From positions 64,993 to 128,992 of the forward strand of contig JANQMA010000017.1 in NCBI GenBank assembly GCA_028280285.1: DNA of 64,000 nt, written 5' to 3'. Made by a program: the position numbers and the translations under genes. The stretch's first letter is position 1; each line of letters opens with the position of its first letter. Shown here one piece after another: positions 10,301 through 24,958 of the stretch. This stretch comes from Candidatus Omnitrophota bacterium. GTDB taxonomy: Bacteria; Omnitrophota; Gorgyraeia; Zapsychrales; Zapsychraceae. The notes beneath the pieces are model-generated. The model was not told the origin of the DNA, did no database searches, and saw nothing but the letters and a program-made list of their open reading frames with translations.

Positions 10301-13300
10301 GCTGGCAGCACCATTTTATCAACAAACTGATCATTATTGGGTACGAAACTTTACTCAATTTATTTATGAAAGTGTGGGATTAGAAGAACGTCAATCTGAT
10401 ATTCGATTTAATGCAAAGGAAATTTTTGAAAGGGTGAAATCAGATAGGCTTCTTGATAAAAATATGATAAGTGCTATTTTGAACGATTTGGCTGAGTTTA
10501 AATATATTAAAAATCCCAACTACGCTGATTCTAAAAAGACATTTGCTGATATTGAGTTTAATCCGGGAGAATCAAGACAAATTTTCCTTGTTAACCCGTA
10601 TTCGCTTAATATTTATGAAACTATCACTATTTCACATGATAAGAACTCAGGTAGTTTTGCAATTGCTCCACACGCTAATTATTTTTCTGATGCGGAAAAT
10701 GGGCAAGATGTCGAAAGGGCTATTCTTAAAAAACGGGGTAAAATATCTCATGAATATCGTTTATTGAGATCCCAAGAATTGGGTTATTCAATCCGTATTA
10801 GTTTAAATAAAAAAAATGACAACGCGTTGACGTTTGGAGGTGTCCACCCTAAAAATGGATTATTGATTTTTTCATCTGTGTTTGATGAAGCAAGTTTGGG
10901 GCAGGAGGATGAACCTGCCGACCCGGCGGTCTTGAAACAAAAAGATATTATGCAATTAGCGCATTTCGATCCTGATTTAGTTGCAAGGATTAAAACCAAT
11001 CTTTTTCAGGTATCAGAGGTGCCGGTGATTCGTGATAATCCCGCATTTTCCGTTCCTTTTTCTAAGGAGGATGGGTTTTTTGAGGGGATTAATGATTTAA
11101 AGGCATTGATGTACGCTGTCCAGAAGATGAAGGATTCTCTTGAGAACATAAGCCCGAAGTTAAATGCCGAAGGTGTGGGGCAATTATCCCCAACGATAGC
11201 ATCCATACAAAACGATTTCGATTTTCTTGTTGATGTGCAAAACAGATTGCGCTTGCATGAAGGGGTTACAGATACCATGTTTGTTTATAAAGAAGGGTTG
11301 CAACGGTTAATGGAGATTGTGAAATTTGACAATAGAGGCGATTTGTACGTTGTATACGCGGGTTTAGTCATGACGTATTTGCAGTATAAATATTCTAATA
11401 AAATAATTTACAATGATTTCGATCCAACAGATTCGTTCAAACTTAAAAGATTTTTTGATGTATATTCTATGGCTGACCGGTTTGATTTTCCTGCAACAGT
11501 GGTGCAAACCATTAACGGTATCGGCTCCATTGCAGATAAAATAAAAGTGGTACGCGCACTCAACGCGTGGGCCACCATGCGAACCCTGGCAAAAGGCGAA
11601 CAGACGCCGGTGTATTTTGAAACAGAAACCGGTGAACAAATTAAAACCGTTTATCTCAAACCGATTTCTTTTGATGCTTCAGAGCGCGACAAGCTTTTAA
11701 TGATGGAAGTTAAACGTGATCAATCGAACGTTTATTCTGTTCGCCAAAAGGGAAAAGAAAACTGGCAAGTCATCGAGCAGGATGCCCCGCGGACGTTTGG
11801 CTTAATGGGCGTGCATGTGACTTTTATGATTCAAAAGAAAGTGCTGCATATCGAAAATAATAGCCGGCATATTTTTATAGCTAGTATTTCAGAATCTATT
11901 AATGGAAAGACCTATGATGATGCGATGTTGTCTGAATATGCGGCACGAAAAATAATTTTTAGTGCAAAAGATTTTCTTATTATGAATGAGATTCTTAACC
12001 AGGATTATCCTGATTTGGCCAAACGTCACCGGTCTATGCTGTTTGCGCTTGTGCACGGCACGCCGTTAACTGATATTTGGCTATCTCGTCCGAAAAGATT
12101 TGTTGAACCTAACGCTAATTTCATTGTCGAAGAAGCAAGAGTGCGTGCTGCAGAAAACAGACCGTTTAATATTAGTCCTATAGGCGCAAAAATATATCTT
12201 GGTGTTGATGATAATGAGAAGAAAAAGATCAATCGCAGTTTGGTAGCGGATGTTTTAAATACGTGGGGAACGCTTATTCGCATTCATACTCAAGCAGCGT
12301 ACAGCATTCCTGTGTTTATGGAAGAAGGCGAAACACGCCAACTGTATGTTGTTAACAACGAGACCAAAGAATTTATTAAATTACAGATCAATCAGATGCC
12401 TGGTTATTTTGAAGTTATAGATATAAGCAATGGTAAAGAAGGATATGGTTATTGGGTGTTTCCTGATCATGATACCGAGAACGGAGACAATAAGATTTAT
12501 TTTGCCAATGGAAAAGACTATATCATATTGGATGAGGATCAATTTGATCAGTTATCGGTGATTAATGAAACCAATGCTGATTTGACAGCCTTTGCGGTCG
12601 ATCAAGCAAGTTTGGGCAAGGTAGTTAGAGCTGAAGAGGGTCGTTATGTGATTCAGAAAAATGGGGTTAATGTTTATTCAGATGTTACTGAAAGAGACAT
12701 GATTGACGTTTTTTTTAACAATACACCCGATTTGGAGCGACCAGTAGCTGAGGTGGCATTATATCGAAATAGTCGGGAGGATTATTATATTTCTTGGTGG
12801 GGCGGTTGGGCTATTAATGAAACATCTGTGAATGATCAGTCACAATGGTTTGATTGGAATACAGATAAATCACTTGCTGTTCGAAAAAATAAAATTTTAT
12901 ACAAATATGAATTGGAATCTAAAATAAATAAACTTATTGAACAGCGTTCAGATAGCCGAGAACCTCTCTATATTTTAGATTGGGGGTTTGGGGATGGAAC
13001 TGCTATTGATGAATTAGCACAAAAATTTGAACATATCGAAAACTTGTATTTTATTGGCTATGGAATGACACATGATAGTAAATGGAGTACTTTTGGAGAA
13101 ACTTTTAAACGTAAAAATATAATTATTTTTGATCATATTTGGAAATTAGAAAAACATTTAAAGAAAATTTTGAAAGGTAATAAGCTGGCTCTTGTTTATA
13201 GTCATTTTGGTTTAGCTCACTTATTAAGGGATTATCCAGATGATGCCAGGGAACAAATAAAAACTTTAATGAAGTATATGAAAAATGGAGCATCGCTTAT

Positions 13301-16300
13301 AACCAATTACTATTGGAATGATAGCCTTCCTAGTAAATTTGCAAAAGGATTTAGAAAGAAAACTATTAGCCCAAATACATTCAGTGCGTGGGCGATTGTG
13401 GAGATATTTAATGAAGACGCAGCAAGTTTAGGGCAGGAGGATGAATCTACCGACGCGGCGGGATTAGATATGCTGGCTTATATTATGTCACGGCGTGTGT
13501 TTGATCCGGATATTGCTAAAGAACTTGAAATATTGCATGCCCAATGGGCTAATATCGTTGATCAATTTATAAATACAAGTAAATATAATAAAAAATCTCA
13601 AAGACTGGTAGGGCCGACTGGTTGGACAATGTTCAAACGTTATGGTTTTAATAAAAATAAGGAACTGTATTTGGAATATTTTCAACGTCTGGGGGATGAG
13701 GGAGTCATTGATAGTTTTTCAATAAAGGTTACTGATGGGAGGTTAAAATACTTTGCTCCTGGATTGCATCACCATTCAGCTAGTTTTTTTGGTCAAGAAT
13801 ATGCAACAGATAGTGCGCCTCCGCGTTCTGGAAGTTTTGTTGTGCGCGTTTATGAACCTTTTTCGAAGGAACTAGAGGAAGAGATTAGAAAAATTTTTGG
13901 TGAATTTTTGGCGCAATATGGCAGGACTACTGGATTTGAAAATTTTGTTAAAGATTTTGATGAAGGGGTGATGCCAACAGTTGGTTCACAAATCAAGAAA
14001 AATCCCGGTGAGGCAGAAAATATTAAAAAGGCCTACAATGATGTACGAGATATACTTGTTCGAAAAAACAAAGACTACTGGCAAAAACTTCCGCGTCTTA
14101 TGGCAAGATTACAGCAAATACTTATAAGCGGTATTTATGTAAAAGAAGTAATTCATAAAGATGAAAAAAGGTTTAAGGATGCCCCGCCCGCCCGGATTTA
14201 TGCGTATGGAGATATGGGGTTTGAAGATCCGGTTGCATTTATTCAACATTTAAATAAAACAACACCACTGGTAGCGAAACTACTCTTAGGGGAAACATAT
14301 CTTGATCCAACATCGGGTATTGATATTAATGATCCTAGGATAGCAGAGGTTGTTGAAGAGCAGCCGTACTCTGAACAAGGCAAGCCTATCGATGAGGCGA
14401 ATTTGGGCAAGACGGGCGAATCTACCGATGCAGAACCAGAAAGCTTTGATGAAGAGATAAAGGAAGATAAAGATCAGGCGGCGATAACGGCAGTGGATGT
14501 TCATGGGACGCGTGTGCCAGGCGGTGGTATTATTTGGACAAGGATGCCGGCTCAATATTTTAAAGTTCTTCGGTTGCGTAGAGGAGGGAAAGCATACCTG
14601 CGCGAGTCTTCTATTAAGGGTTTAGTTTTGGAGAACGCTTTAGAACGTTATCGGCACAGTGATACTCCCTTACAAAAGGTTAATAATCATTTAGGAATAG
14701 ATTTGGTTGATGAAATTGTGCAATTAGATCAGTTACGTCAACGTGAGAATGAGCCAAACCGTGTGATTACTGTTTTAGATTGGGGTGGCGGCAGTATGCA
14801 GGCCATTAAAGATATTTTAAACGAATTAAAGGCTCAAAATATTAAAAATGTTCGCTTGATTGGTTCTGGGCATAGTACGTACCTGGAGTGGAAGGATATT
14901 CCGGAGGGGATTGAGGTTATTTGGGATGTGGCACAGAAGCTTCATTTATATATTGCTGAGGGCAGTATTGATATTATTTACAGTCATTATGGGATGTATC
15001 ATTTAGATGAACAATTACCGCAGTATTTGATGTATTTAGAGAAACTTCTTAGTCCTCGAGCAAAAATTTTGATATATCCTTTGGATGGAGATTTATCTGA
15101 GCAGTTACCAGGGTGGAAGTTAGAGATAAAAAGAAAGCATAAGAATATTTCTCGGTTGGATGTTAAGACACATAAGAAAAAATTTTGGTCTGGATTGATT
15201 TCTCGTATGATTTGGCCTGCTTCACAAAGAGTATCAGTCCGTAATTTCGCACCATTTAATTATAGTTATGAATTTACTCCGCCTTCTCGAATATCAATTA
15301 AATCGAAAGGCTCTGATCCGCTTGAGGGCCTTATGATTTCATCTTGGAGTGATACCCCAAAGGAGCGCATCATTTTGCCTAAAAGAAGTATGTCAAGTTT
15401 GCGAAGACGGGTGGGTGGACGTGATTTTGCGAGCCTGGAGCGGAAGGATGAGGCTCAAATCGACGCGGCGGGGTTGGATTTTAATGGAAAATTCTCGATG
15501 GCCAGTTATGGAAATAATGAAACTGATGTGATGAGATTAAATAGAATTACGAAAGGTAAAAGGTTGATTGAGAGAGTGCAACCGCAGCACTTTCGTTTGA
15601 ATAGTGCCGGTGTTAATATTTATTCGAGTTTACAAGATGAGGAAATAATAGACATCCTTTCGATATTAGATAGTGAAAAGATTGCTCGGATAAGACTTAA
15701 TAATCGAAATACTACGACAGACTACCACATTAGCTGGGAAAAACCATGGCGTATGAATCGTACACCACTTGATGCGGTTGATATGTTTGCGGGTCTTAAA
15801 TTTTATGAATTGGAGTCGAGAGTAGAAACTATTATTAATAATCGCCAGGATGACGCTGAACCGATTTATATTTTTGACTGGGGTTTTGGAGCAGGGACCG
15901 CGTTAAAAGAGTTGTCTGAGAAATTTGATAATATTCCTAACATATTTTTTATCGGATTTGGTGACGCTTATTATGAAGATTGGCATACACTGCCGAGTAA
16001 TGTCATTATTATTTACGATCAGGCTTGGAGGCTAGAGGAGCATTTATCAAAAATTCTTAAGGGGCATAAAATTGATCTGGCTTTTAGTCATTGGGCGTTA
16101 TCTTCACACTTTTTAGGTGATTATTTTGGCCCAAAAAGAGTATATTTTTTAAGACTTATGGATTTTCTAAAACCTGGTGCTTCCTTTGTTATTGATGCTC
16201 TGAATGATTCCGGTGCAGAGTTGGGCATTAGACGGGATTTTAATGTTCAAAAAATACCAGTGAGCAACTATTATTTCGGCGATATATTTGAAGTAAAAAA

Positions 16301-19300
16301 TGAAGATTCTAGGAGTTTGGGTAAGGAGGTTGCGGATCAAACCGATGCGGCGGGATTGGGTGAAAGTGTTCAGAATTCAGTGTTCGGTGGTCAGCCGGAA
16401 GAAACTGATGCGGCGAATTTCAATGAGTATTTATTTTTATCACCTGAATTAACGTTGGACTATTTTGTTGCCTTACTATCAAACCTTGGAGATAAGACTG
16501 TTTTATCACTTACAGTATATCTTTTAGCTCCGTATATTGGTGCAGCACAATTGACAGATGAGTTTAAGTTAACAAATCCCTTAGCTAATACTTTATACGA
16601 CGTTGTAGTAGCTCAATTAAAAGAAATGTTCGGTAAGGACGAATTATACCCTATGGATATGAGAGGCTATTTGGATCAATTGCCATTGTTAAGCAACGAT
16701 ATTGGCAAGCATGTTTTGGAATCTCTAGGTAGTGTTAGAGCGATGGTCCATGAGTCTGAGCTTAAACATCAACCACCAATATCAATCGGTGTTGGCCAGA
16801 GCAAAAAGCTTATTTTGGCGGAGCGTTATTATACTGATCAGACTGATATGACGACTATGCATTTGTTGGATGTAACACGACTTTCCTCGAATCAATTTAA
16901 ATTGAAGGCAGAGGGGATAGATAGGCAAATTGATTTGAAGCAAGAGAGTTTAATGGGTTTAGAAATGAATTATTTGGATGAGCAAGGGCAGCCTTTTACA
17001 ATGTCAGTTAAGATGCTGTTTTCGAATAATGGTTTTCAAATTTATTATACCAATGATAACTTGGATTTTAATACTATGATCTTTGCGCTTGATTATGAAT
17101 TGATTAATTTTGTTAATGAAGTTGGTGAGCCAAAGCCTTTTCAAGATAATGCGAGTTTGGATAAGGAGAATGAGTTCCAAACCGACGCGGCGGGGTTGGG
17201 GTCTAGTGATCAGTGGTCCCGCGGTCAGTCGGAGAAATTTGATGCAGCGCGTTTAGATAAACAGCAGCTTAAAAAAATATCAAATAAAGCTCTTGGGAAT
17301 ATGTTTTGGAATGATTTTTATCGGGCATTGCTACTTTTGTTTGATAAATCGATAACATTTTATTCGCAGACAGATAAAGGGATTAAACCTTATGTATGGC
17401 ATAAACTAGTTGAACATGATCCAAGTGTTAATTTATCACTATTTGCCAAGATAGCAGTTCCAGGTTTGGATAACGTACGAGTTATAGACTCGAAATATGA
17501 TTATGTTATGAGTATATTAGACAGTTTTAATCCTTCTGCTGAATCTTTTACAAAATCAATGGAGAGCATCAAAGAGATGCTAGAAGATGATAATCAGCAG
17601 TTGGGGCTGGCTGAAAGTAAGCCGATTGCGCATAGGCATTTAATTCGTAGAGCGCTTTATTATTTTACACGTGAACATGATGAAGCCCGAGAGAATGAAA
17701 AGAAGTTGGTAGAGGTATTTGATTATGGAGCCAAAATTATCAATGAAATCAAACGGCGTAATAATATTGCCCAAAAAACATTAAAATCTCATGGAGTAAT
17801 TGTTGATGCCTCTGGTGCGGCAAAGCTGAATAATGGTGATCGATGGGCAGCCCGCCCTGCTGCTTTGCAGAAAAAACCGGAAACTCGCGTGGTCAGTGAT
17901 CAAAAGAAAGGCGGTGACGCGCTGGATTTGAGTAGAGAGAAATCTTTACAAATGTATCCACGAAAAACCTTATCCAATTTTGATTCGATTATTCATGTGT
18001 TATTTGAAGGATACACCCAAAAATTTCAATCTGGGCAAAATCCAATATTATGGAAAACACATGCAAGAAATTTATTGGAAAACGTAAGTTATTATGTGAA
18101 TGAGCATTTTATTTATCCTGAAGTCGCGATGGATACGTTTGTTAATAAAAATAAAGAATTTATCGAAAAGCTAATTGATGAAGGGAATGAACGCTATCTA
18201 TATTCTGCATTTTTAATTTATAAAGGTTTAGCCACAATGGCGGCTAAAGATTTACGTAACATTGCAGATAGTGATAGGTTGTTTGCTCAGCCACGAAAGA
18301 ATCAGCCGGTTCGAAGCTTTAGAAATCAAGCGCATAAGTTGGCTCCTTTGCGCAGGGAATTAGAGCGATTACAAGGAAGATATGTGGAGTTGCGAGAATG
18401 GGCTGAGTTCAATTTATTTTTCAATGATAAATTTCAGAAAGAATCTCAAATTGTTTATGCTTTTGAACATCATACGCAGAATTTAATTAATGTCGTTGGT
18501 GAGGTTGGTTATGATGGAGCGCTGACCTATGGAGAGGTTGATCAGTATGCTATTCAATTGCAAGGCGATGCTTATATTTTAGAAGGTGTTGTGCGTGTAT
18601 TACATGATATTAAGCTTAAGGTAGAAAGAGACTCTGCGAGTTTGGGTGAGGAGGTTGAGTTCCAAGCCGACGCGGCGGGGCTGGATTTAAAAAATTTAGA
18701 AGAAATTTCTGTTGATGAGATGAAAAAACTATTTAACGCTCTATTTTCAGAAGTTTTTTATGCTTTGTTTGAGGGTACTCTCTGGTCTCATGAATACGAA
18801 AATTATAATGAGATTGTTGAGTATGATTGGGAGAGACACAATGATTTGCATAATGTAAAGAATATTAAAGTTAATATCAATAGTGCTATGACTCTATTTG
18901 CTTTGAGGCCCAACTCGAATAAAGAAATAGACATGGCTCTCAGATCAATTGATAGATTTAAAAATGAACTACGTTTGATTGATTACACGAACCGAGAAAG
19001 TGAGTTAGATAGTTTGTTGGATCAAATGGAGGGATACAAAGATTTTGGTTTAAGTGAAGATGAACCAATTGAGTATGCATTGCTTAAACCACGATTTTTT
19101 TATCAAGCATTGCGTGCAGATCCTAATGCAGATGAGAATAGAATTAAAATGTTTACCAAAGTGAACAATTTAAAGTCTGTTATTAATGAATTTAAACGTA
19201 GACTAGAAATTGAAAAGAAAAATTTAGTTGTTACAGGGTCTGAATCTACCGATGCAGCGGGGTTGAAAAGTATTGATAAGCAAGAGTTGCGTAATATGAC

Positions 19301-20180
19301 CGATGGAGGTGTTGGTAAAACATTACGCGATCATTTTAATGAGTTTTCAAATTTGTTTGAAGCGCAAGTGTGGTCGCCTGGTTTGTATACATTGGCTGTT
19401 AGAGATTTTTCATGGACAGAAATAGTAGAGCATCATAGAGCAGATATGCTGAAAAGTATAGATGGTATTATGAATGGATCACTTAAAAATTTTGAAAATA
19501 TGTCGCAGTTAAAGAATTTTTTATGGTTGGTTTATAATTTTATGACGCAGATCAATATTTATCGCAATTTAGCTTCTTTCGATGAACTATTTGAAGAATT
19601 TTTAGAAAAGATGAAGCAATATAGCGACCGGGGAAAAGAATTTGAGAATCCTACAACATATGACCTTCGAGAAGTTAGATTGATTTATTATGTTTTAAAA
19701 GAAGATGTTAATGCAGAAGAAAACAGAAAAAAATTATCTGATACTTTAGAAAATATTAAAATAATTGTTGAAGAGATTGAACATAGAATTGAGCTTAAAT
19801 ATGAATCATTGAAAAAAAATGGTATGGAAGCTGATAAAGAACTAGATAAAATTTTTGAATCTGTAGAAGATGATTTGGGAGCTTTGACGAATATTAAGAG
19901 CTTCGAGCTTCGAGCTCCGAGCTCCGAAGTAGGTGGTATCGACCTTGACTCCAAACACCTTGACCTTCAAATCAAACGTGATGGGCGTGGTGTGGCGCTG
20001 CCGGTTCACATGCAAGATATTCCGAATATTCAGATCGATGGGCTTTATCCGGTGATTATCAATATCACGCCGGTGACCACCGTGCCGCTTATTTTCAGCC
20101 AAATCCTTGGGGAGCAAGGGGATACAGATCACGCCTCAGTAACAGATTATCCGCAGTTGTCGTATGCCATTAAAGAGTAG
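4362..20180 (+). CDS. Giant secreted/surface protein (5272 aa), modular, with repeated ASLG...DAAGL linker motif and three SAM-methyltransferase-like Rossmann modules
   Basis: Single uninterrupted ORF 15.8 kb; N-terminal signal peptide (hydrophobic core + AQAQV); 12 in-frame linker repeats; repeated modules with (I/V)LDWG(F/G)G(D/A)GT motif I-like sequence. Confidence 0.85.
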   Translation: MIIKSRLKVIINKVLVSVVLTAFIMTSIVPVNFAQAQVTPPMALPAVGTLVPLSSAHTPVHLLGLTVSPDNPLAFDFLIHSGDNPPAEQTLKQEADTLIRYFLASLTIPEKDMWVNLSPYEEDRIIEDNFARTAMGRDLLAEDYMLKQLTASLLYPDGDIGKVFWRRVRQKAEALGLKDIPTETFHKIWITPESATVFEDGQTAYVVESKLKVLLEEDYLAYSEQRIANSSAQQSVDNSLNAKRHTLNADLMREVIIPEITHEVNYGAHFARLRQIYGAMVLATWFKQNLKQTLLGQIYADQSKVKGIDTVKEDAHKRIYAQYIDSIKKGAYNLIKEDYDPVAQRIVARKHFSGGFAPDAAAITTVKTESLNAADVTTQKQINDFAFNFDAAVAQKEVFNVQTSLAESKEDPAAMKGVIDSAVMNVQQQDGDYITQLDKTADAAGLSRKIQDLRTMPTATLQAYFSILKSDFMTGRTKYTYRQHSSILSEYWSKLSEHESELSNEKFYLQDRVGRFLDVTKYLEDLDQRGIKKIKLNGVDIFHHLSNLSEPGLNQEKMLEDILQSFAELKMIRPRTDPDQNKISNSIEFKEREIKHIFLASPDVNQFAPQEPLVLSVLLHQDGDFEIVEGFDITNEDSLRIVLEKGQRPSFHYPLPSRLGDSIRISLDPNDENSLVFDRLEAPTELVHFALTADAASLHHSARGRMRLSLDDFSLYTSLLNENLQSKYLWHIIIQLARHDLLTKGFWSNVLDFSESFIAYDGQELFNMLKESFTKKGHLYPQEYLAHAINSLATIKRLAHNHSNTFEFKPGETQNIVMKVIGNDKVEPFVLTARYDRQRQQFAFKRPSSNTEEVVSMNRKQIFEILDFYRIELRPRLSEDGWTAMLEMTNAHTYRELFTYAFTPQYPLVSVPSGLLWDYLTYLGQNKRKLYKTLGIFSVNVLLPVVFEGQKLKDINFDGKNLLSFDVRWPQYQFRPLMDTLKEKQLHDLKRNSNSAVDTYVFSKEVFNKLGIVNRSDDFHAIFDTLNSLRFVNHHQSSKQHALIPVSDKPKNVHIILRENENTQKELMDATVSKLADDLLSLSFNDKSVTDLVIIQDQQIRLTIDNEITLILRQIKGNLQITYITNDQSMRDIFRFTVGFDSASLGKEKDLVGVKGVDEDAENITISQFLENAPNTMVAAFKNGFKNRTDHFGLLKRLNNNEMTAKWILMADKVLRETAGAEITYRDFSLIDFLKQKGFSKLRRNTMFSPDLFITMDGKKYIGVYVGSKGLKSTLGQFSLSSVKRKWYKKILQMDGSGLEGIILLMDTDTPEYPVRELTPINEMKGFYAFPLFEKALIEAHHRKDDLIGFPSLLYAHNFNYAESYLNDLISDVHNSIALISRINYFSPQELADFKKDVAYYEARAQQYLNYAKEGFKEHRKVFDKYIKEYKQRKIPGIYKLEEMIFTRNIDIGNVLVTSLFVLQTAKTLEQLGFDIIEFETNLNRSTKPDIIVAKNGSKYIVEAHWREVSQSKFFERNSRGFKKPSQKRRYRQYVDAHSDFKGVILSSSYRFQTQKSNVIFKHKNDDKRTKRIFIDISDDQDLIARNIEQSFDEESLGYVDHQLLSDQKKDGFSDYASMSVINENFLKANLKPGKRLESFKDRLADYLNEQILFVQSAKSREKIYDQVDLFLSGIDSLIEEYFLDSIDVDEMLSEYGKELMADLMAAGGVKSVQEAAVLLQRLLVVAFEMNHRFLEFKNNNIKDADTAKRYIDQFLNPGILELARRAEQMYKKLKVAYDNFSVMEESYVQRRGSNESFELMIKRFKDAFFSEYGSETMQKAKASFSKGGVLQKLRDFKFSNDKLTQEQLDVLIEYETVVDEIDQTLRPISKYWEILITFYNDFANDVGAQVIPLNEGPSVSVNFNFHNQFSGLSGERTSLNDAAGLSKQAQAMTKLSLGPLERHLEVLEAFEEKGVLTYSLENYMEVITMGVNPNKIGDLLAAPFYQQTDHYWVRNFTQFIYESVGLEERQSDIRFNAKEIFERVKSDRLLDKNMISAILNDLAEFKYIKNPNYADSKKTFADIEFNPGESRQIFLVNPYSLNIYETITISHDKNSGSFAIAPHANYFSDAENGQDVERAILKKRGKISHEYRLLRSQELGYSIRISLNKKNDNALTFGGVHPKNGLLIFSSVFDEASLGQEDEPADPAVLKQKDIMQLAHFDPDLVARIKTNLFQVSEVPVIRDNPAFSVPFSKEDGFFEGINDLKALMYAVQKMKDSLENISPKLNAEGVGQLSPTIASIQNDFDFLVDVQNRLRLHEGVTDTMFVYKEGLQRLMEIVKFDNRGDLYVVYAGLVMTYLQYKYSNKIIYNDFDPTDSFKLKRFFDVYSMADRFDFPATVVQTINGIGSIADKIKVVRALNAWATMRTLAKGEQTPVYFETETGEQIKTVYLKPISFDASERDKLLMMEVKRDQSNVYSVRQKGKENWQVIEQDAPRTFGLMGVHVTFMIQKKVLHIENNSRHIFIASISESINGKTYDDAMLSEYAARKIIFSAKDFLIMNEILNQDYPDLAKRHRSMLFALVHGTPLTDIWLSRPKRFVEPNANFIVEEARVRAAENRPFNISPIGAKIYLGVDDNEKKKINRSLVADVLNTWGTLIRIHTQAAYSIPVFMEEGETRQLYVVNNETKEFIKLQINQMPGYFEVIDISNGKEGYGYWVFPDHDTENGDNKIYFANGKDYIILDEDQFDQLSVINETNADLTAFAVDQASLGKVVRAEEGRYVIQKNGVNVYSDVTERDMIDVFFNNTPDLERPVAEVALYRNSREDYYISWWGGWAINETSVNDQSQWFDWNTDKSLAVRKNKILYKYELESKINKLIEQRSDSREPLYILDWGFGDGTAIDELAQKFEHIENLYFIGYGMTHDSKWSTFGETFKRKNIIIFDHIWKLEKHLKKILKGNKLALVYSHFGLAHLLRDYPDDAREQIKTLMKYMKNGASLITNYYWNDSLPSKFAKGFRKKTISPNTFSAWAIVEIFNEDAASLGQEDESTDAAGLDMLAYIMSRRVFDPDIAKELEILHAQWANIVDQFINTSKYNKKSQRLVGPTGWTMFKRYGFNKNKELYLEYFQRLGDEGVIDSFSIKVTDGRLKYFAPGLHHHSASFFGQEYATDSAPPRSGSFVVRVYEPFSKELEEEIRKIFGEFLAQYGRTTGFENFVKDFDEGVMPTVGSQIKKNPGEAENIKKAYNDVRDILVRKNKDYWQKLPRLMARLQQILISGIYVKEVIHKDEKRFKDAPPARIYAYGDMGFEDPVAFIQHLNKTTPLVAKLLLGETYLDPTSGIDINDPRIAEVVEEQPYSEQGKPIDEANLGKTGESTDAEPESFDEEIKEDKDQAAITAVDVHGTRVPGGGIIWTRMPAQYFKVLRLRRGGKAYLRESSIKGLVLENALERYRHSDTPLQKVNNHLGIDLVDEIVQLDQLRQRENEPNRVITVLDWGGGSMQAIKDILNELKAQNIKNVRLIGSGHSTYLEWKDIPEGIEVIWDVAQKLHLYIAEGSIDIIYSHYGMYHLDEQLPQYLMYLEKLLSPRAKILIYPLDGDLSEQLPGWKLEIKRKHKNISRLDVKTHKKKFWSGLISRMIWPASQRVSVRNFAPFNYSYEFTPPSRISIKSKGSDPLEGLMISSWSDTPKERIILPKRSMSSLRRRVGGRDFASLERKDEAQIDAAGLDFNGKFSMASYGNNETDVMRLNRITKGKRLIERVQPQHFRLNSAGVNIYSSLQDEEIIDILSILDSEKIARIRLNNRNTTTDYHISWEKPWRMNRTPLDAVDMFAGLKFYELESRVETIINNRQDDAEPIYIFDWGFGAGTALKELSEKFDNIPNIFFIGFGDAYYEDWHTLPSNVIIIYDQAWRLEEHLSKILKGHKIDLAFSHWALSSHFLGDYFGPKRVYFLRLMDFLKPGASFVIDALNDSGAELGIRRDFNVQKIPVSNYYFGDIFEVKNEDSRSLGKEVADQTDAAGLGESVQNSVFGGQPEETDAANFNEYLFLSPELTLDYFVALLSNLGDKTVLSLTVYLLAPYIGAAQLTDEFKLTNPLANTLYDVVVAQLKEMFGKDELYPMDMRGYLDQLPLLSNDIGKHVLESLGSVRAMVHESELKHQPPISIGVGQSKKLILAERYYTDQTDMTTMHLLDVTRLSSNQFKLKAEGIDRQIDLKQESLMGLEMNYLDEQGQPFTMSVKMLFSNNGFQIYYTNDNLDFNTMIFALDYELINFVNEVGEPKPFQDNASLDKENEFQTDAAGLGSSDQWSRGQSEKFDAARLDKQQLKKISNKALGNMFWNDFYRALLLLFDKSITFYSQTDKGIKPYVWHKLVEHDPSVNLSLFAKIAVPGLDNVRVIDSKYDYVMSILDSFNPSAESFTKSMESIKEMLEDDNQQLGLAESKPIAHRHLIRRALYYFTREHDEARENEKKLVEVFDYGAKIINEIKRRNNIAQKTLKSHGVIVDASGAAKLNNGDRWAARPAALQKKPETRVVSDQKKGGDALDLSREKSLQMYPRKTLSNFDSIIHVLFEGYTQKFQSGQNPILWKTHARNLLENVSYYVNEHFIYPEVAMDTFVNKNKEFIEKLIDEGNERYLYSAFLIYKGLATMAAKDLRNIADSDRLFAQPRKNQPVRSFRNQAHKLAPLRRELERLQGRYVELREWAEFNLFFNDKFQKESQIVYAFEHHTQNLINVVGEVGYDGALTYGEVDQYAIQLQGDAYILEGVVRVLHDIKLKVERDSASLGEEVEFQADAAGLDLKNLEEISVDEMKKLFNALFSEVFYALFEGTLWSHEYENYNEIVEYDWERHNDLHNVKNIKVNINSAMTLFALRPNSNKEIDMALRSIDRFKNELRLIDYTNRESELDSLLDQMEGYKDFGLSEDEPIEYALLKPRFFYQALRADPNADENRIKMFTKVNNLKSVINEFKRRLEIEKKNLVVTGSESTDAAGLKSIDKQELRNMTDGGVGKTLRDHFNEFSNLFEAQVWSPGLYTLAVRDFSWTEIVEHHRADMLKSIDGIMNGSLKNFENMSQLKNFLWLVYNFMTQINIYRNLASFDELFEEFLEKMKQYSDRGKEFENPTTYDLREVRLIYYVLKEDVNAEENRKKLSDTLENIKIIVEEIEHRIELKYESLKKNGMEADKELDKIFESVEDDLGALTNIKSFELRAPSSEVGGIDLDSKHLDLQIKRDGRGVALPVHMQDIPNIQIDGLYPVIINITPVTTVPLIFSQILGEQGDTDHASVTDYPQLSYAIKE

Positions 20181-20330
20181 CGGCGAAGCAGTGCCTCTGC
20201 CCTAAATAGTACCAAGTTTTGGGTCGACACATTGGTCGGCTTGTACCTATCGGTGTTGTGAAAAATACTTGCCAAATTTTACACTACATTATATTATTAT
20301 ATAAGATATGTAGTGTAAGGAGTGTGGACT

Positions 20331-20636
20331 ATGATTATTTTACAAGAGATTTTAGCTGATAGCAAAAAGCATTATCAAGAAGTCCGAAAGAAAATTCTCA
20401 AAAATCTTTCTTCGCTTCCCCAGGGGAGTGTCAAAAAACGTAAGATTTCTAAGCGTATCTATTATTATCTCCAACAGAGGGTCGGTTCTAAAATTATTCA
20501 TAAATATTTAGGTAAAGAAGAGCCGGAGGAGTTAATTAAAGAGTTAAAATTACGTAAGTCTTTGAAAGCTGAGCTTAAAAAAGTCGATGAGGCTTTAAAG
20601 GTTATACAAAAAGTCCAAGGCAAAAAGTATGGATAA
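20331..20636 (+). CDS. Small basic protein (cassette 1 gene A), possible antitoxin/regulator partner
   Basis: SD AAGGAG 9 nt upstream of ATG 20331 (ORF-track GTG 20322 less likely); 8-nt overlap with the following gene; lysine-rich C-terminus. Confidence 0.4.
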   Translation: MIILQEILADSKKHYQEVRKKILKNLSSLPQGSVKKRKISKRIYYYLQQRVGSKIIHKYLGKEEPEELIKELKLRKSLKAELKKVDEALKVIQKVQGKKYG

Positions 20637-21309
20637 TGTGATTGCCAAAATTCTGAAAGTTTTTGAAAATAATAATCTATTTGAAGAAGGCGTAGAGCTG
20701 ATTGGAAGCTGGTGTTTTTACTTGTATCAAAAACATTTAAAGGCTCCGAGTTTTCCGCTGCGAACACAGGACATTGATTTTCTAATTCCCAATCCATTTA
20801 AGGGCAAAGAGCATAAAGAGTTTATTCAGCAGTTGGAGGACTTGGGTTTTCAGAGTGAATTTAATCGGAGTGGATCGCTTTACCTTTGGAATGTGGATTT
20901 AAAAATAGAATTTATCACGCCGGCAAAAGGCAGAGGCACGGCCGATGCGGTAAAATTTAAAAAGCTGGGACTAGCGGCCGTACCTTTGAGATTTGTTAAT
21001 CTGTTGCTCAATGATCCTATTTATGTTACGGAGAAGGGAGTAAAAACAGCTCTTCCAAATCCTGCTAATTATTGCCTTCATAAGTTGGTGATTGCTAGCC
21101 GTAGAAAGACGAAGGACAAGCAAATGAAAGATTTACAGCAAGCCATATCTACCTACAGTATTGCTGATAAGAGGTATTTAAAAAAACAATTTAACAACTT
21201 TCCCGAAAAATGGAAAGCTACCGCTGTCAGTATGCTTAAAAAGAATCGAGATCAGCTGCCTCTTTTTGATGCGGAGATAGAGCAAATTTTAATTACACTA
21301 CAAAATTAA
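20629..21309 (+). CDS. Putative minimal-nucleotidyltransferase-fold protein (AbiEii/GSU2403-like) (cassette 1 gene B)
   Basis: GSWCFYLYQ...RTQDIDFLI matches the G[SG]x9-13 DhD nucleotidyltransferase signature; translationally coupled to upstream small gene. Confidence 0.35.
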   Translation: MDNVIAKILKVFENNNLFEEGVELIGSWCFYLYQKHLKAPSFPLRTQDIDFLIPNPFKGKEHKEFIQQLEDLGFQSEFNRSGSLYLWNVDLKIEFITPAKGRGTADAVKFKKLGLAAVPLRFVNLLLNDPIYVTEKGVKTALPNPANYCLHKLVIASRRKTKDKQMKDLQQAISTYSIADKRYLKKQFNNFPEKWKATAVSMLKKNRDQLPLFDAEIEQILITLQN

Positions 21310-21358
21310 TAATTTTATATAATGTAGTGTAAAATTTTTTTATAAGTTTGTTGACAGC

Positions 21359-21472
21359 GCGCCGGTGACCACCGTCCCGCTTATTTTTAGCCAAATTCTT
21401 GAAGATCAACAGGATACAGATCACGCCTCGGTGACGGATTATCCGCAGTTGTCGTATGCGATTAAAGAGTGA
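21359..21472 (+). pseudogene. Displaced duplicate of the 3' end of the giant gene (last ~37 codons, no start codon)
   Basis: ~90% nt identity to 20068..20180; encodes APVTTVPLIFSQILEDQQDTDHASVTDYPQLSYAIKE* versus native PVTTVPLIFSQILGEQGDTDHASVTDYPQLSYAIKE*; 8 synonymous vs 3 nonsynonymous differences. Confidence 0.7.
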
Positions 21473-21579
21473 TTGGTGATTTAGAAAGTATATGATATTA
21501 TAAAATTCTAGTGGCTATTCCTCCCCAAAGTATGCTGTAACTTCAAACTATTCGATTTCCCTTACAATATTAATTTTTG

Positions 21580-21608
21580 ACAAGTATACGTCAATGGCGT
21601 ATACTTAC
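21580..21608 (+). promoter_or_regulatory. Sigma-70-type promoter for the HigBA-like pair with overlapping GTATAC palindromes
   Basis: TTGACA - 17 nt - TATACT; spacer contains GTATACGTCAATGGCGTATAC; followed by ACTTACTAAGTAAG palindrome. Confidence 0.4.
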
Positions 21609-21619
21609 TAAGTAAGGGG

Positions 21620-21943
21620 TTGTGCATGGAGATCATTGAAACGCCAATCTTTACAAAAATGATTGGGGATGTTCTTTCAGATGAAGAATATAGAGAATTA
21701 CAATGGGCATTGTTGCTTAATCCGAAGGTAGGTGTTGTTATCCCTGGAGGTGCGGGATTAAGAAAACTACGTTGGCATTTTTCTGGAAGTGGAAAAAGAG
21801 GGGGATTGCGTGTTATTTATTATTTCTATTCAGAAGACGAAGCAATTTATTTGTTGTTTTCGTATAAAAAATCACAACAAAATGCTTTAACGCGGGCACA
21901 AATAAAAATTCTAAGAGAGTATGTTAAGGGAGGTGTGCTGTGA
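21620..21943 (+). CDS. HigB-like toxin (RelE/ParE superfamily, phage-related COG4679-type)
   Basis: WHFSGSGKRGGLRVIYYFYSEDEAIYLLFSYKKSQQ matches the GxxGGxRVIYY..IYLL..Y.K signature; 4-nt ATGA overlap with downstream HTH gene. Confidence 0.6.
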   Translation: MCMEIIETPIFTKMIGDVLSDEEYRELQWALLLNPKVGVVIPGGAGLRKLRWHFSGSGKRGGLRVIYYFYSEDEAIYLLFSYKKSQQNALTRAQIKILREYVKGGVL

Positions 21944-22230
21944 AAGACAAAGATTTTAACAATTTGTTGACGAGTATTGACCAGGCACGAAAGATACATA
22001 AGGGAAAATTAAAACCAAGCCGTGTTTTCATATTTGATCCAGTGATGGTTAAAAACATAAGGAAAAAATTCAAAGTATCTCAATCTGAATTTGCTTATAT
22101 GATTGGTGTGAGTGTGGCGACTTTGCAAAACTGGGAGCAGGGCCGCCGAAAACCTGATGGGCCGGCATTGGCATTGTTGAAGGTTGCAGAAATGAATCCT
22201 GAAATTGTGATGAAAGCTTTGTATGCGTAA
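21940..22230 (+). CDS. HigA-like antitoxin, XRE-family helix-turn-helix protein
   Basis: SQSEFAYMIGVSVATLQNWEQGRRKP is a canonical XRE HTH; toxin-first gene order typical of HigBA. Confidence 0.65.
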   Translation: MKDKDFNNLLTSIDQARKIHKGKLKPSRVFIFDPVMVKNIRKKFKVSQSEFAYMIGVSVATLQNWEQGRRKPDGPALALLKVAEMNPEIVMKALYA

Positions 22231-22270
22231 GGGGATTGAGGGGCTCAATCCTTGAGGAGAAAAAGGAGGT

Positions 22271-22327
22271 ATGAAAAAAGCGGGTTTGCCTGAATACCCC
22301 CAATTATCATACGCAGTAAAAGATTAG
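22271..22327 (+). other. 18-codon mini-ORF (MKKAGLPEYPQLSYAVKD) = third, more decayed copy of the giant gene's C-terminal tail, preceded by a strong SD
   Basis: AAAAGGAGGT 1 nt upstream of ATG; last 11 residues EYPQLSYAVKD vs native DYPQLSYAIKE. Confidence 0.4.
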
Positions 22328-22395: not shown

Positions 22396-22638
22396 ATGGC
22401 TAAAACTGTGACCTTAAGGCTTTCGGATGAGGAGTACCAAGCGATCCTTGCCTCCGCTCAAACAGAGCACCGGCCTATTTCTAACTTTATTACACATGCT
22501 GTGTTGGCCAAAATTAATGAATCCTTATTTGTGGATCCTGTTGAGATGAATGAAATTAAGTCTGATAAAGAGTTAATGAAGCGGCTTAAAAGTGGATCTA
22601 GTCAGGCCAAAAAGATGAAGGGAAAGTTTGTTGAGTAA
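22396..22638 (+). CDS. Ribbon-helix-helix (CopG/ParD-like) antitoxin
   Basis: MAKTVTLRLSDEEYQAILASA N-terminal beta-strand/helix pattern of RHH antitoxins; overlaps toxin gene by 11 nt. Confidence 0.5.
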   Translation: MAKTVTLRLSDEEYQAILASAQTEHRPISNFITHAVLAKINESLFVDPVEMNEIKSDKELMKRLKSGSSQAKKMKGKFVE

Positions 22639-22909
22639 TTTTCGCATATTTGAGACAGATCAATTTGCAGAAGATTTAGAACAAGATTTTTCCGGACAGC
22701 GTGAACGCATCAAAAAGAAGCTCCAAAGTTTTGTCTATCCACAGCTTCGTGATCAGCCTTATTTCGGTAAAAACATTAAAAAGTTACGTAATTTCTCTCT
22801 GGAAACCTGGCGATATCGCATAGGCGGGTTTCGGTTTTTTTATGAAATTGATGAGGAGCAAAAAATTGTTGTTATGATTGCGGCGAGCAATCGGGAAGGT
22901 GCATATTAA
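22628..22909 (+). CDS. RelE/ParE family toxin
   Basis: WRYRIGGFRFFYEIDEEQKIVVMIAASNR matches RelE/ParE C-terminal signature; TTG start overlapping antitoxin. Confidence 0.6.
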   Translation: MLSNFRIFETDQFAEDLEQDFSGQRERIKKKLQSFVYPQLRDQPYFGKNIKKLRNFSLETWRYRIGGFRFFYEIDEEQKIVVMIAASNREGAY

Positions 22910-22941: not shown

Positions 22942-23106
22942 ATGGAAATTGATAGATCAGATCAAGGACGTATTGCGGAAAAGGTCATGAAAGAGGCTGT
23001 CAAAGAAGCGATTGAAGAGCAGCTCAAAAGAGGGGTTCCTGCCGTATTTATGCGTGATGGTAAAATCTGCTACCAAATGCCGGATGGGCGCATTGTCGAG
23101 GCCTAG
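22942..23106 (+). CDS. Small ORF (54 aa, MEIDRSDQGRIAEKVMKEAVKEAIEEQLKRGVPAVFMRDGKICYQMPDGRIVEA), unknown
   Basis: Not in ORF track (below length cut-off); GAGGT 7 nt upstream of ATG; antisense 63-aa ORF 22957..23148 is the alternative. Confidence 0.25.
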   Translation: MEIDRSDQGRIAEKVMKEAVKEAIEEQLKRGVPAVFMRDGKICYQMPDGRIVEA

Positions 23107-23192
23107 CCGATTCTTCCCTATTATTATATCTCCACCCATACCACACAATATTTGCTTGCATTCCAGGGGACTTTTGTTAGAATATCCGTCTC

Positions 23193-24503
23193 ATGGCCAG
23201 CACTGATTTAATGGACAAAATCGTATCTCTCTGTAAACGCCGCGGATTTATCTTCCAATCTTCCGAAATATACGGTGGGCTCGCAAACTCCTGGGACTAC
23301 GGACCTTTGGGCGTTGAGCTGAAAAATAATGTCAAGCAAGCCTGGTGGAAACGCAATGTCCATGGCCGCGATGATATGGTCGGTTTAGACGCCGCGATCT
23401 TTATGCATCCTAATACATGGAAGGCCTCAGGTCATCTCGATACATTCAACGATATGATGGTTGATTGTAAGGATTGTAATAAACGTCTGCGTGAAGATCA
23501 TATTGAAGATAATACATGCCCGGATTGTGGAAGTAGTAACTTTACCGAAGCGCGTCCGTTTAATCTGATGCTTGATTCTTATCTCGGCCCTGTGCGTGAT
23601 GAGTCAGGTAGAACATACCTCAGACCGGAAACCGCTCAGGGTATTTTTGTGAATTTTAAAAATATATTGGATTCGACCTCGCGTAAGCTGCCATTCGGTG
23701 TGGCGCAGATCGGAAAATCATTCCGTAATGAAGTTACCGCCGGTAATTTTACCTTTCGCCAGCGTGAGTTTGAACAGATGGAGATTGAATATTTTTGCCA
23801 TCCGGATCAAGCCGATAAATTTTTTGAAGAGTGGATTGAAAATAGATTTCAGTGGTACAAAGATTTAGGTATTCGTACGGAAAATTTGCAGTTACGCAAA
23901 CATGAAGATGACGAGCTTGCCCATTATGCCAAAGGCTGCACGGATGTTGAATACAAATTTCCATTTGGTTGGTCGGAGCTTGAAGGGATCGCGCATCGCA
24001 GTGACTTTGATTTAAAGCAGCACTCACAACATTCCGGTAAAGAATTAATTTACCGTGATCCGTTCACCAATGAAGTATTTACGCCGTATGTGATCGAGCC
24101 GTCCGGCGGGGTTGATCGCGGGATGCTCGCGTTTTTGGTTGATGCTTATCATGAAGAAGAGGTCGATGGTAAGCCGCGTACGGTGTTAAAACTGCACAAG
24201 GATTTGGTGCCAACGAAAGTGGCGGTGCTGCCGCTGCTTAAGAAAAACACAGAAGTGGTTGAGTTGTGTCAAAAGATCAAGAATGATCTGATAAAAGATA
24301 TGACATGCACCTACAATGATACCGCGGCTATCGGCAAGCTTTATCGTCGTCAGGATGAGGTAGGGACATTTTATTGTGTGACGGTGGATGTCGACTCGCT
24401 TGAAGATAATCAAGTGACCGTGCGCGATAGGGACAGCATGGCGCAAGAGCGCGTTGCGCTGGATCAGTTGAAGCAGTACCTGCGTAATAAGTTTGAGGAC
24501 TAG
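23193..24503 (+). CDS. glyQS: Glycine--tRNA ligase (alpha2 dimeric class II type)
   Basis: Class II motifs and zinc-ribbon insertion (CKDCNKRLRE..CPDCG); FRNE, GIAHRSDFDL, ERVALDQ regions characteristic of GlyQS. Confidence 0.85.
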   Translation: MASTDLMDKIVSLCKRRGFIFQSSEIYGGLANSWDYGPLGVELKNNVKQAWWKRNVHGRDDMVGLDAAIFMHPNTWKASGHLDTFNDMMVDCKDCNKRLREDHIEDNTCPDCGSSNFTEARPFNLMLDSYLGPVRDESGRTYLRPETAQGIFVNFKNILDSTSRKLPFGVAQIGKSFRNEVTAGNFTFRQREFEQMEIEYFCHPDQADKFFEEWIENRFQWYKDLGIRTENLQLRKHEDDELAHYAKGCTDVEYKFPFGWSELEGIAHRSDFDLKQHSQHSGKELIYRDPFTNEVFTPYVIEPSGGVDRGMLAFLVDAYHEEEVDGKPRTVLKLHKDLVPTKVAVLPLLKKNTEVVELCQKIKNDLIKDMTCTYNDTAAIGKLYRRQDEVGTFYCVTVDVDSLEDNQVTVRDRDSMAQERVALDQLKQYLRNKFED

Positions 24504-24580: not shown

Positions 24581-24958
24581 ATGCAAATACGTAATTTTCA
24601 AGATTTAGCTATTTGGCAACGGAGTCATCAATTGACTCTAAAAGTTTACAAACTTACCAAGCATCTTCCTGAAGATGAGCGGTATGGAATTACAAATCAG
24701 GTGAGAAGATCATCTGTATCAATCTGTGCGAATATATCTGAAGGTTGCAGCAAGGGAACAAAAGAATTTATCAGATATTTAAATATAGCACGGGGCTCTT
24801 TAGAAGAAACAAAACATTATTTCATATTAATGAAAGATCTTGGTTATTGTTCTGTCGAGCAGTATCAGGTTTTGTTTAGTGAATTAGACCAAATTGGAAA
24901 AATGATTTACGGTCTTAAAATGCGTTTGGTGGAAAAATCCAAAACACTTAAATACTGA
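24581..24958 (+). CDS. Four-helix-bundle protein (TIGR02436 / 23S rRNA intervening-sequence protein family)
   Basis: AIWQRSHQLTLKVYKLTKHLPEDERYGITNQVRRSSVSICANISEG..ARGSLEETKHY matches the family signature; RBS enclosed in ATCCCCC..GGGGGAT hairpin 24553-24577. Confidence 0.7.
   Translation: MQIRNFQDLAIWQRSHQLTLKVYKLTKHLPEDERYGITNQVRRSSVSICANISEGCSKGTKEFIRYLNIARGSLEETKHYFILMKDLGYCSVEQYQVLFSELDQIGKMIYGLKMRLVEKSKTLKY

Follow-up and report, generated by a model that had tools for sequence, protein, structure and literature searches.

How does the 3' end of a giant gene come to stand three times in a row, with small toxin-antitoxin-like gene pairs between the copies? The question is raised by a 64-kb stretch of an Omnitrophota contig, from here on referred to as the window (all coordinates are window positions, and L-numbers denote compared loci). 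Here, a giant gene is followed by three two-gene cassettes and two displaced, partial copies of its own last codons before glyS, the gene for glycyl-tRNA synthetase, is reached. The explanation we consider best, with a probability of roughly 0.55, is serial C-terminal displacement of the giant gene's end, and the evidence favours ordinary homologous recombination rather than a dedicated integrase as the route.

Displaced gene ends between the giant gene and glyS

The features of the locus are as follows (+, forward strand; ORF, open reading frame).

4362–20180, +: giant gene, 5272 aa (ORF list)
19917–20180, +: coding sequence of the conserved C-terminal domain plus tail, ending DYPQLSYAIKE and stop (alignment)
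20068–20180, +: copy 1, the attached functional gene end and newest copy (DNA alignment)
20269–20318, +: promoter-like site TTGCCA-17-TATTAT overlapping palindrome P1, left end of cassette 1 (promoter scan)
20331–20636, +: cassette 1 gene 1, small basic DUF6788 protein, 101 aa (precomputed Pfam annotation of the identical gene in L162)
20629–21309, +: cassette 1 gene 2, PF12281 NTP_transf_8, "GSU2403 family" nucleotidyltransferase (NTase) fold (Pfam E = 8.6e-26)
21293–21337, +: palindrome P2 with the same 10-nt arms as P1, then a T-run, right end of cassette 1 (fold and alignment)
21360–21472, +: copy 2, displaced end of 37 codons plus stop without start codon (DNA alignment, tblastn)
21577–22230, +: cassette 2 with its own promoter TTGACA-17-TATACT (promoter and family scan)
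21626–21943, +: cassette 2 toxin, RelE/Gp49-like (family match)
21940–22230, +: cassette 2 antitoxin, NadS/MqsA-type helix-turn-helix protein (NadS E = 6e-20)
22247–22327, +: copy 3, the oldest displaced end (DNA alignment, tblastn)
22396–22638, +: cassette 3 antitoxin, DUF6290/RelB-like ribbon-helix-helix (RHH) protein (family match)
22631–22909, +: cassette 3 toxin, ParE (family match)
22942–23106, +: 54-codon ORF ending the inserted block, without family match (ORF list; called as a gene in L162)
23107–24503, +: native downstream sequence, glyS promoter region and glyS (from 23193; L001 alignment)

Copies 1 and 2 form a 111-nt direct repeat (20068–20178 and 21360–21470) with 89% identity. 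A preliminary description of the locus had noted an in-frame copy lacking a start codon at this place, which is correct except that the copy begins at 21360 and not at 21359. It remains in frame to its stop codon at 21470–21472, and the frame is open only from 21323, with no plausible start. At the protein level, the two copies differ by G>E, E>D, G>Q and, in the boundary codon, T>A; synonymous differences affect 7 codons. A 23-mer taken from the repeat occurs exactly twice in the 64 kb, compared with 0 occurrences in 100 shuffles. Copy 3 is weaker. It is matched at 22256–22324 by tblastn of the gene's last 60 aa (E = 8e-6), where it reads GEKGGMKKAGLPEYPQLSYAVKD, and its peptide ends in EYPQLSYAVKD and a stop. 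The shorter third copy proposed earlier is thus real, and its DNA similarity begins near 22247 instead of 22271. Copy 3 now constitutes an 18-codon mini-ORF (22271–22327, MKKAGLPEYPQLSYAVKD and stop) with its ATG seven bases past an AAGGAGG (together 22263–22327); this Shine-Dalgarno-like motif may be due to chance because it derives from the ancestral codons GAGCAAGGGGAT. The whole array is 100% identical over 20.7 kb in an independent Logan assembly (L162, run SRR20820735) and is for this reason not an assembly artefact.

The codon-wise alignment of the copies that the preliminary description had proposed revealed an excess of third-position differences. Counted for first, second and third codon positions, the differences are 2, 2 and 9 between copies 1 and 2 and 1, 0 and 10 between copies 1 and 3 (last 11 codons). 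In total, 19/24 fall on third positions (p = 0.003), judged against a null in which one copy is constrained and the other decays freely, so that third positions should account for a share of about 0.5 or less; on their own, copies 1 and 2 would give no more than a suggestive count. At two further loci introduced below, L058 and L131, the corresponding counts are 2, 0, 10 and 5, 3, 11, and for the window and L058 combined, third positions hold 29 of the 36 differences (p = 1.6e-4). This pattern shows that the displaced ends diverged under purifying selection and therefore derive from homologous functional genes, an origin that the preliminary description had already put forward.

The only fairly close relative is L001, a 2.3-kb ENA contig whose gene end and glyS are 79% and 80% identical to those of the window at the nucleotide level. 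Here, the gene end and glyS are separated by 237 nt that contain no cassette, and the glyS promoter region of this contig aligns with window sequence starting right after the 54-codon ORF. Because the gene end of L001 directly neighbours glyS, the comparison shows the 3-kb block separating the two in the window to be an insertion. Of the same-locus comparison outlined earlier, the single gene end without cassette was thus obtained, but no close relative showing polymorphism of individual cassettes was present in the collections searched: a protein search with the last 250 aa returned 6 matches (best 53% identity), and genome and metagenome scans returned none closer than 71% over 63 aa. The spacer between gene and glyS in L001 carries two copies (849–905 and 995–1050) of an element of about 57 nt resembling repetitive extragenic palindromes (AACCTACGCGGTTAAG...AACCGCGTAGGTT); one of them overlies the gene's last codons, where the ending SYAIKE has become SYAIEPSQPTRLR.

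The inserted block carries the two-gene cassettes that had been recognized between and after the copies, and family matches agree with that account: DUF6788 with NTP_transf_8, RelE with NadS, and RHH with ParE. All cargo units end 0–25 nt ahead of the next remnant. Cassettes 2 and 3 are predicted type II toxin-antitoxin pairs, consisting of small adjacent or overlapping genes of known families, while cassette 1 has a toxin-antitoxin-like architecture with no known toxin or antitoxin activity and no PADLOC match. The family scan, which took in the genes of the cassettes as well as 30 out of roughly 38 further likely genes of the window, supports the earlier statement that the predicted cargo consists of toxin-antitoxin-like modules only. 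It returned no recombinase, again as described before, and the family-matched genes outside the cassettes are housekeeping or metabolic.

Recurrence and breakpoints at other loci

The arrangement recurs independently. Downstream sequence of 177 gene ends with the conserved C-terminal domain, drawn from 160 loci, was compared with the gene ends by blastn and tblastn. Displaced ends with toxin-antitoxin cargo were found in the window and at three other independent Omnitrophota loci, L058, L103 and L131 (4/177 gene ends), the latter three all at genes with the same domain. In L058, the last 191 nt are repeated with 92% identity; the copies enclose a PIN gene and a 47-codon ORF, and behind the second copy comes a Phd/PIN pair. 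Empty sites are known for this locus as well, the gene end directly abutting the downstream gene in L019, L033, L037 and L054, and in L039 the gene end is followed by the promoter of L058's older cassette, an intermediate stage in which the younger cassette is missing. In L103, a 108-aa ORF, HicB-like by eye only and without significant family match, and a HicA toxin gene separate the gene end from a 92%-identical remnant, with groES next. L131, also seen as L129, contains DUF433/DUF5615, a remnant, RelB/ParE and tyrS in this order.

A self-repeat scan over all 1.98 Mb of loci, covering genes with and without the domain, yielded a sole case at another gene. In L070 (14299–17617), an amino-acid permease gene has its final 140 nt duplicated with 98.6% identity around a reverse-strand AAA_14/DUF4143 gene, a PADLOC candidate (PDC-S01, E = 2e-154). 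The process is consequently not strictly tied to the C-terminal domain. A gene related to IS200-like Y1 transposases lies just beyond the L070 duplication (17135–17617). Gene-end duplication nevertheless appears enriched at the domain family, on small numbers (3–4 of 151 ends versus 1 of 469 others, p = 0.05–0.01). Toxin-antitoxin genes lie directly behind family genes in 6/82 versus 2/83 cases when Pfam-listed, which is a trend only (p = 0.13); a classification by eye, which is not rigorous, gave 13 versus 3 (p = 0.007).

The repeats of L058, L103 and L070 are mosaics with a near-identical left block, followed in L058 and L103 by a divergent tail. The left 150 nt or so of the L058 repeat contain 2 mismatches and its last 30 nt contain 9, nearly all of them synonymous (QPEAVLSKG versus QPEAVLSKR). 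In L103, 6 mismatches are found in the left 147 nt (49 codons), and about one third of the tail is different, with in-frame indels (SHETQKNPQLTMN versus SNEAPKALQQLSMK). Eight of the nine left-block mismatches are at third positions. The mosaic structure means that tail and cargo differ in ancestry from the conserved block: tail and stop codon would travel with the cargo and have the older ancestry, and the conserved block would stem from a very close relative. Read in this way, the mosaic is the putative signature of recombination within the conserved block. The left edges of the displaced copies lie about 75, 111, 120, 183 and 190 nt before the stop codon.

Routes of insertion and competing explanations

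Under serial C-terminal displacement, the incoming DNA would come from related Omnitrophota and carry a compact, self-promoted toxin-antitoxin module immediately 3' of a homologous gene end. The first junction would be homologous, formed by recombination with the resident gene inside the C-terminal-domain coding sequence. The second junction would fall 75–190 nt upstream of the resident stop codon and could arise either through a single crossover of a circularised fragment of gene end and cassette, as proposed for rhs loci, or through homology-facilitated illegitimate joining or template switching. The gene would remain intact, now with the incoming tail; downstream of it would lie the cassette and then the old end, as a dead remnant. 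The window would record at least two such events, cassette 3 probably having arrived before copy 2 with cassette 2, and these before copy 1 with cassette 1. Its evenly diverged copies fit simple replacement, with all of copy 1 derived from the donor, while the mosaic loci L058 and L103 need a duplicative topology, that is, a circle or sister-strand exchange. Direct repeats of 110–190 nt would also make RecA-mediated deletion of the intervening DNA easy, and the loss of an addictive module would be penalised; toxin-antitoxin modules may remain visible between the repeats because of this penalty. The only cargo that is not of this type, in L070, lies between the youngest repeats (98.6% identity).

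The closest precedent is provided by rhs loci, where an intact gene is followed by dissociated fragments, each combining a variable length of core with an alternative tip, and by small genes between them; homologous recombination via a circular intermediate of core fragment, tip and intervening genes has been proposed and needs high core identity (Jackson et al. 2009, PMC2935791). The arrays analyzed here likewise show an intact large gene, a string of 3' fragments with variable conserved length and alternative tip, and small genes in between. As in rhs loci, tips are conserved rather than decaying, and the ancestry of conserved region and tip is decoupled (L058, L103, L070). The host gene, however, shows no sign of a polymorphic toxin in its first 450 and last 110 residues, which were scanned against Pfam and NCBIfam, and the tips, tails of 10–38 residues, contain no toxin domain. 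Between the fragments lie autonomous predicted type II toxin-antitoxin pairs instead of cognate immunity genes, and the phylum, Omnitrophota, is a different one. Orphan cdiA-CT/cdiI and mafB arrays are further analogues. Homology-facilitated illegitimate recombination shares with the present arrays one homologous anchor and one illegitimate junction beside a conserved gene, but the mosaics of L058 and L103 call for a duplicative topology. Documented events of this kind usually delete recipient DNA instead of duplicating it. The process is reportedly known from naturally transformable bacteria, through work of de Vries and Wackernagel in 2002 and of Prudhomme et al. in 2002.

The preliminary description had viewed the locus as the outcome of serial site-specific integration in the manner of islands targeting transfer RNA (tRNA) or transfer-messenger RNA (tmRNA) genes. 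Serial insertion that re-creates the gene end is upheld; the integrase mechanism is not supported. It would involve tiny integrase-less islands, a recombinase acting in trans and an attachment (att) site in the 3' end of the gene, as for tRNA/tmRNA islands, integron cassettes or Xer-dependent elements. The likeness to tRNA/tmRNA islands is considerable, with incoming DNA re-creating the 3' end of its target, old ends displaced in tandem arrays, direct repeats that equal the target's 3' end and empty sites in relatives. Cargo is compact with tight ends, and the left boundaries in L058 and L103 are nearly the same. Small-cassette arrays of this type exist in the phylum: L167 (HK-STAS-OMNI-2, GCA_020632535.1, JACKFJ010000010.1; 4471–7770), reached via homologues of the L058 PIN gene, is an att-site array behind smpB and tmRNA containing PIN with a 45-aa ORF, a membrane ORF, Phd/PIN and GIY-YIG cassettes, among them a 69% homologue of the L058 PIN cassette. 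Upstream of each of its displaced tmRNA 3' ends (6149–6177 and 7200–7229) is a conserved arm, about 140 nt long, in which GTGCCCA motifs are repeated, and no integrase is found in the 9 kb up to the contig end. L167 is thus a positive control for what a site-specific array looks like in Omnitrophota. The same arm is also present at L072:17979–18106.

Measured against this control, the gene-end arrays lack the hallmarks of an integrase. No sequence shared with the L167 arm was found in them, nothing is conserved upstream of the displaced copies, and neither an arm nor a repeated binding motif accompanies the remnants. No recombinase was found among the scanned window genes or in the examined parts of L058, L103 and L131. 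The left boundaries vary from 75 to 190 nt, and the window remnants overlap the duplicated segment of L058 and L103 only in the non-conserved tail; since this is the only part shared, no common core is possible. The target is protein-coding, the units measure only 0.8–1.3 kb, and an unrelated permease gene has been targeted as well (L070). Chromosomal integrons resemble the arrays in their very small, tightly packed cassettes between repeats and in the prominence of toxin-antitoxin modules. Such cassettes are frequent in chromosomal integrons and are thought to stabilise the array. The repeats studied here, however, are coding sequence, and cassettes 1 and 2 have their own promoters; an attC-like structure was rejected, as the repeats have no hairpin potential and fold no better than shuffled sequence (z = +1.0 and +1.8), and no IntI or attI was found among the scanned window genes next to the array. 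We therefore regard site-specific integration as rather unlikely.

Two domain-sharing genes might once have followed the giant gene, their bodies having been deleted or overwritten by toxin-antitoxin insertions with only the last codons left. Tandem genes sharing the domain are indeed common (L004, L012, L022, L023, L029, L034, L036, L063, L078), neighbouring genes in L023 share their last 237 nt at 88.6% identity, and divergence under purifying selection would be accounted for too. What makes this history improbable is that the empty sites contain no paralogue (L001 for the window; L019, L033, L037 and L054 for L058), that each remnant in four loci would need an independent near-complete deletion leaving 25–63 codons and one toxin-antitoxin module, and that a near-identical left block joined to a divergent tail is left unexplained. 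Slightly less credible still is in-situ duplication, in which the insertion copied the resident end, by a long target-site duplication or a replication template switch, and the copy then decayed. The left blocks of L058, L103 and L070 are 97–100% identical, and their few mismatches have G/C in the attached copy against A/T in the remnant, one of them creating a stop codon in L103; the codon-position pattern nevertheless largely contradicts decay, with a third-position excess in all comparisons, the window (19/24, p = 0.003) and the near-identical blocks (8/9) included, and with tails that differ by about 30% yet encode the same amino acids, which is impossible by decay. Least probable of all is that the displaced ends are functional, either as silent alternative C-termini for tail switching, comparable to orphan rhs/cdiA tips or pilS, or as small expressed peptides. 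The 18-codon ORF of copy 3 with its ATG behind AAGGAGG, the 59-codon TTG ORF formed by the L058 remnant and the loose [PQ]QL[ST] motif retained near the C-terminus of the tails would suit such a role. Copy 2, however, has no start codon, the L103 remnant contains an in-frame stop, the L131 remnant is truncated, AAGGAGG stems from the ancestral codons GAGCAAGGGGAT, and remnants are rare, being present at 4/177 gene ends.

Several points weigh against serial C-terminal displacement by homologous recombination. Copies 1 and 2 of the window diverge evenly (89%) with no mosaic, so that the decoupled ancestry is not visible there, and nowhere are they identical over more than 23 nt, a length marginal for RecA. 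The enrichment at this gene family rests on small numbers (3–4/151 versus 1/469). In exact look-ups, the cassette proteins were found only in the source sample, with no close strain showing presence/absence polymorphism or excision, and no donor genome was found in which tail and cassette are natively attached. The proposed mechanism leaves the formation of the first unit of gene end and cassette unexplained. Finally, L058 and L103 have left boundaries no more than about 12 nt apart, and all right ends of the cargo are tight, hinting at some precision that a purely illegitimate join does not predict. It is conceivable, though unlikely, that Omnitrophota harbour integrase-free mobile cassettes, toxin-antitoxin or defence modules with a short mimic of the coding sequence for the C-terminal domain as homing arm, which are inserted at, and perhaps excised from, the ends of large surface-protein genes by a host or unrecognised recombinase in trans or by a dedicated homology-guided pathway. 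If so, the DNA of the conserved domain would double as a distributed landing pad.

Cassettes, giant proteins and significance

Promoter-like sites lie upstream of cassettes 1 and 2, and the promoter scan reported none upstream of cassette 3. The DUF6788 assignment in cassette 1 relies on the L162 annotation, a fresh Pfam scan of the protein having given no match. The NTP_transf_8 protein has 425 homologues, and the DUF6788 partner was present in every context read. The module as a whole has more than 400 close homologues across phyla. P1 and P2 have the form TTACACTACA-N20-TGTAGTGTAA (20279–20318 and 21293–21332). P1 overlaps the promoter, P2 the NTase stop codon; a T-run follows the hairpin of P2. 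The same palindrome brackets DUF6788-NTase modules at L163:5650–5695/6665–6705 and L164:180–222/1200–1238, so that it is found at both ends of the module in three unrelated genomes. P1 and P2 were considered as recombination sites of the cassette and rejected, being intrinsic to the module in unrelated contexts without gene-end duplication; they are more likely a predicted operator and terminator. PIN modules also occur in unrelated contexts elsewhere, as do DUF6788-NTase modules, and cassettes therefore move independently of the gene end. In L133, another giant gene of the family is immediately followed by a homologue of cassette 3 (57–60% identity).

Beyond glyS, the window encodes the following protein.

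24581–24958: 23S-rRNA-IVP four-helix-bundle protein (TIGR02436, E = 5e-37)

This protein weakly resembles Avd of diversity-generating retroelements, below the cutoff of the Avd model. Such a retroelement was rejected, as the mismatches between gene-end copies are of all kinds and not adenine-specific and no reverse transcriptase is present among the scanned window genes.

The giant protein begins with a signal-peptide-like N-terminus. Its N- and C-terminal regions are conserved, neither with a Pfam or NCBIfam match over the residues scanned, and its middle is variable and contains repeated linkers. Its C-terminal domain (profile match at residues 5185–5268) is a module of about 70 residues, GGIDL..LQIKRDGxGV.LP...GLYPVIINI.PV, followed by a short variable tail. 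A profile search with the last 106 residues found 396 relatives in species-representative genomes and 294 in metagenomes; of 80 genome loci listed, nearly all are titled Omnitrophota, with some Planctomycetales labels and few other titles. The domain terminates hundreds of large Omnitrophota proteins, often encoded by several genes in tandem, and two papers dealing with giant genes of Omnitrophota describe neither it nor the arrays. GC content is 47% in the 3'-terminal 330 nt of the giant gene (19851–20180), compared with 38% for the gene body, 38% for the cassettes and 45% for glyS, which is consistent with a separately conserved module.

A linker motif D[AESN]A[SN]L[GD]..E..TDAAGL recurs between residues 442 and 4970 of the giant protein, with about nine DAAGL sites (for example at residues 3019/3031, 4262/4275 and 4757/4770), and three [LF]DWG[FG]G motifs like those of S-adenosylmethionine-dependent methyltransferases are found at residues 2872, 3472 and 3838. 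In the giant ankyrin-repeat protein of L133, an analogous GSDPAA[MLI]G linker separates blocks. The linkers look like those of a polyprotein or a modular architecture with putative processing sites. The N-terminal region (window 4362–5711) is common to large Omnitrophota proteins, with ..VNLSPYE.DRII.. shared by two proteins compared by eye. At the extreme C-termini of such proteins, a loose [PQ]QL[ST]x(2-5) motif is frequent and is possibly a sorting signal. Neighbouring full-length paralogues can also be unusually alike at their 3' ends, as in L023 (9992–10228/13809–14045; last 237 nt 88.6% identical) and L118 (2656–2846/6597–6787). The last 190–237 nt of these pairs are 80–89% identical compared with the 60–77% usual for tandem paralogues, which suggests possible gene conversion or exchange of C-terminal modules between neighbours.

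Hundreds of large Omnitrophota proteins thus end in the C-terminal domain delineated here, which is conserved and unannotated. It has long been puzzling how toxin-antitoxin modules on chromosomes spread and become fixed when no vehicle is evident. The loci analyzed here, in four independent genomes of an uncultured phylum, retain the scars of insertion: the former gene ends are still there, and resident and incoming DNA meet at sharp breakpoints. Conserved 3' coding sequence can act as a homology handle, with the variable tail moving together with the cargo, and addiction would account for the survival of such modules alone between direct repeats. C-terminal displacement, hitherto described for polymorphic toxin genes, would thereby be extended to a gene family that does not encode toxins.

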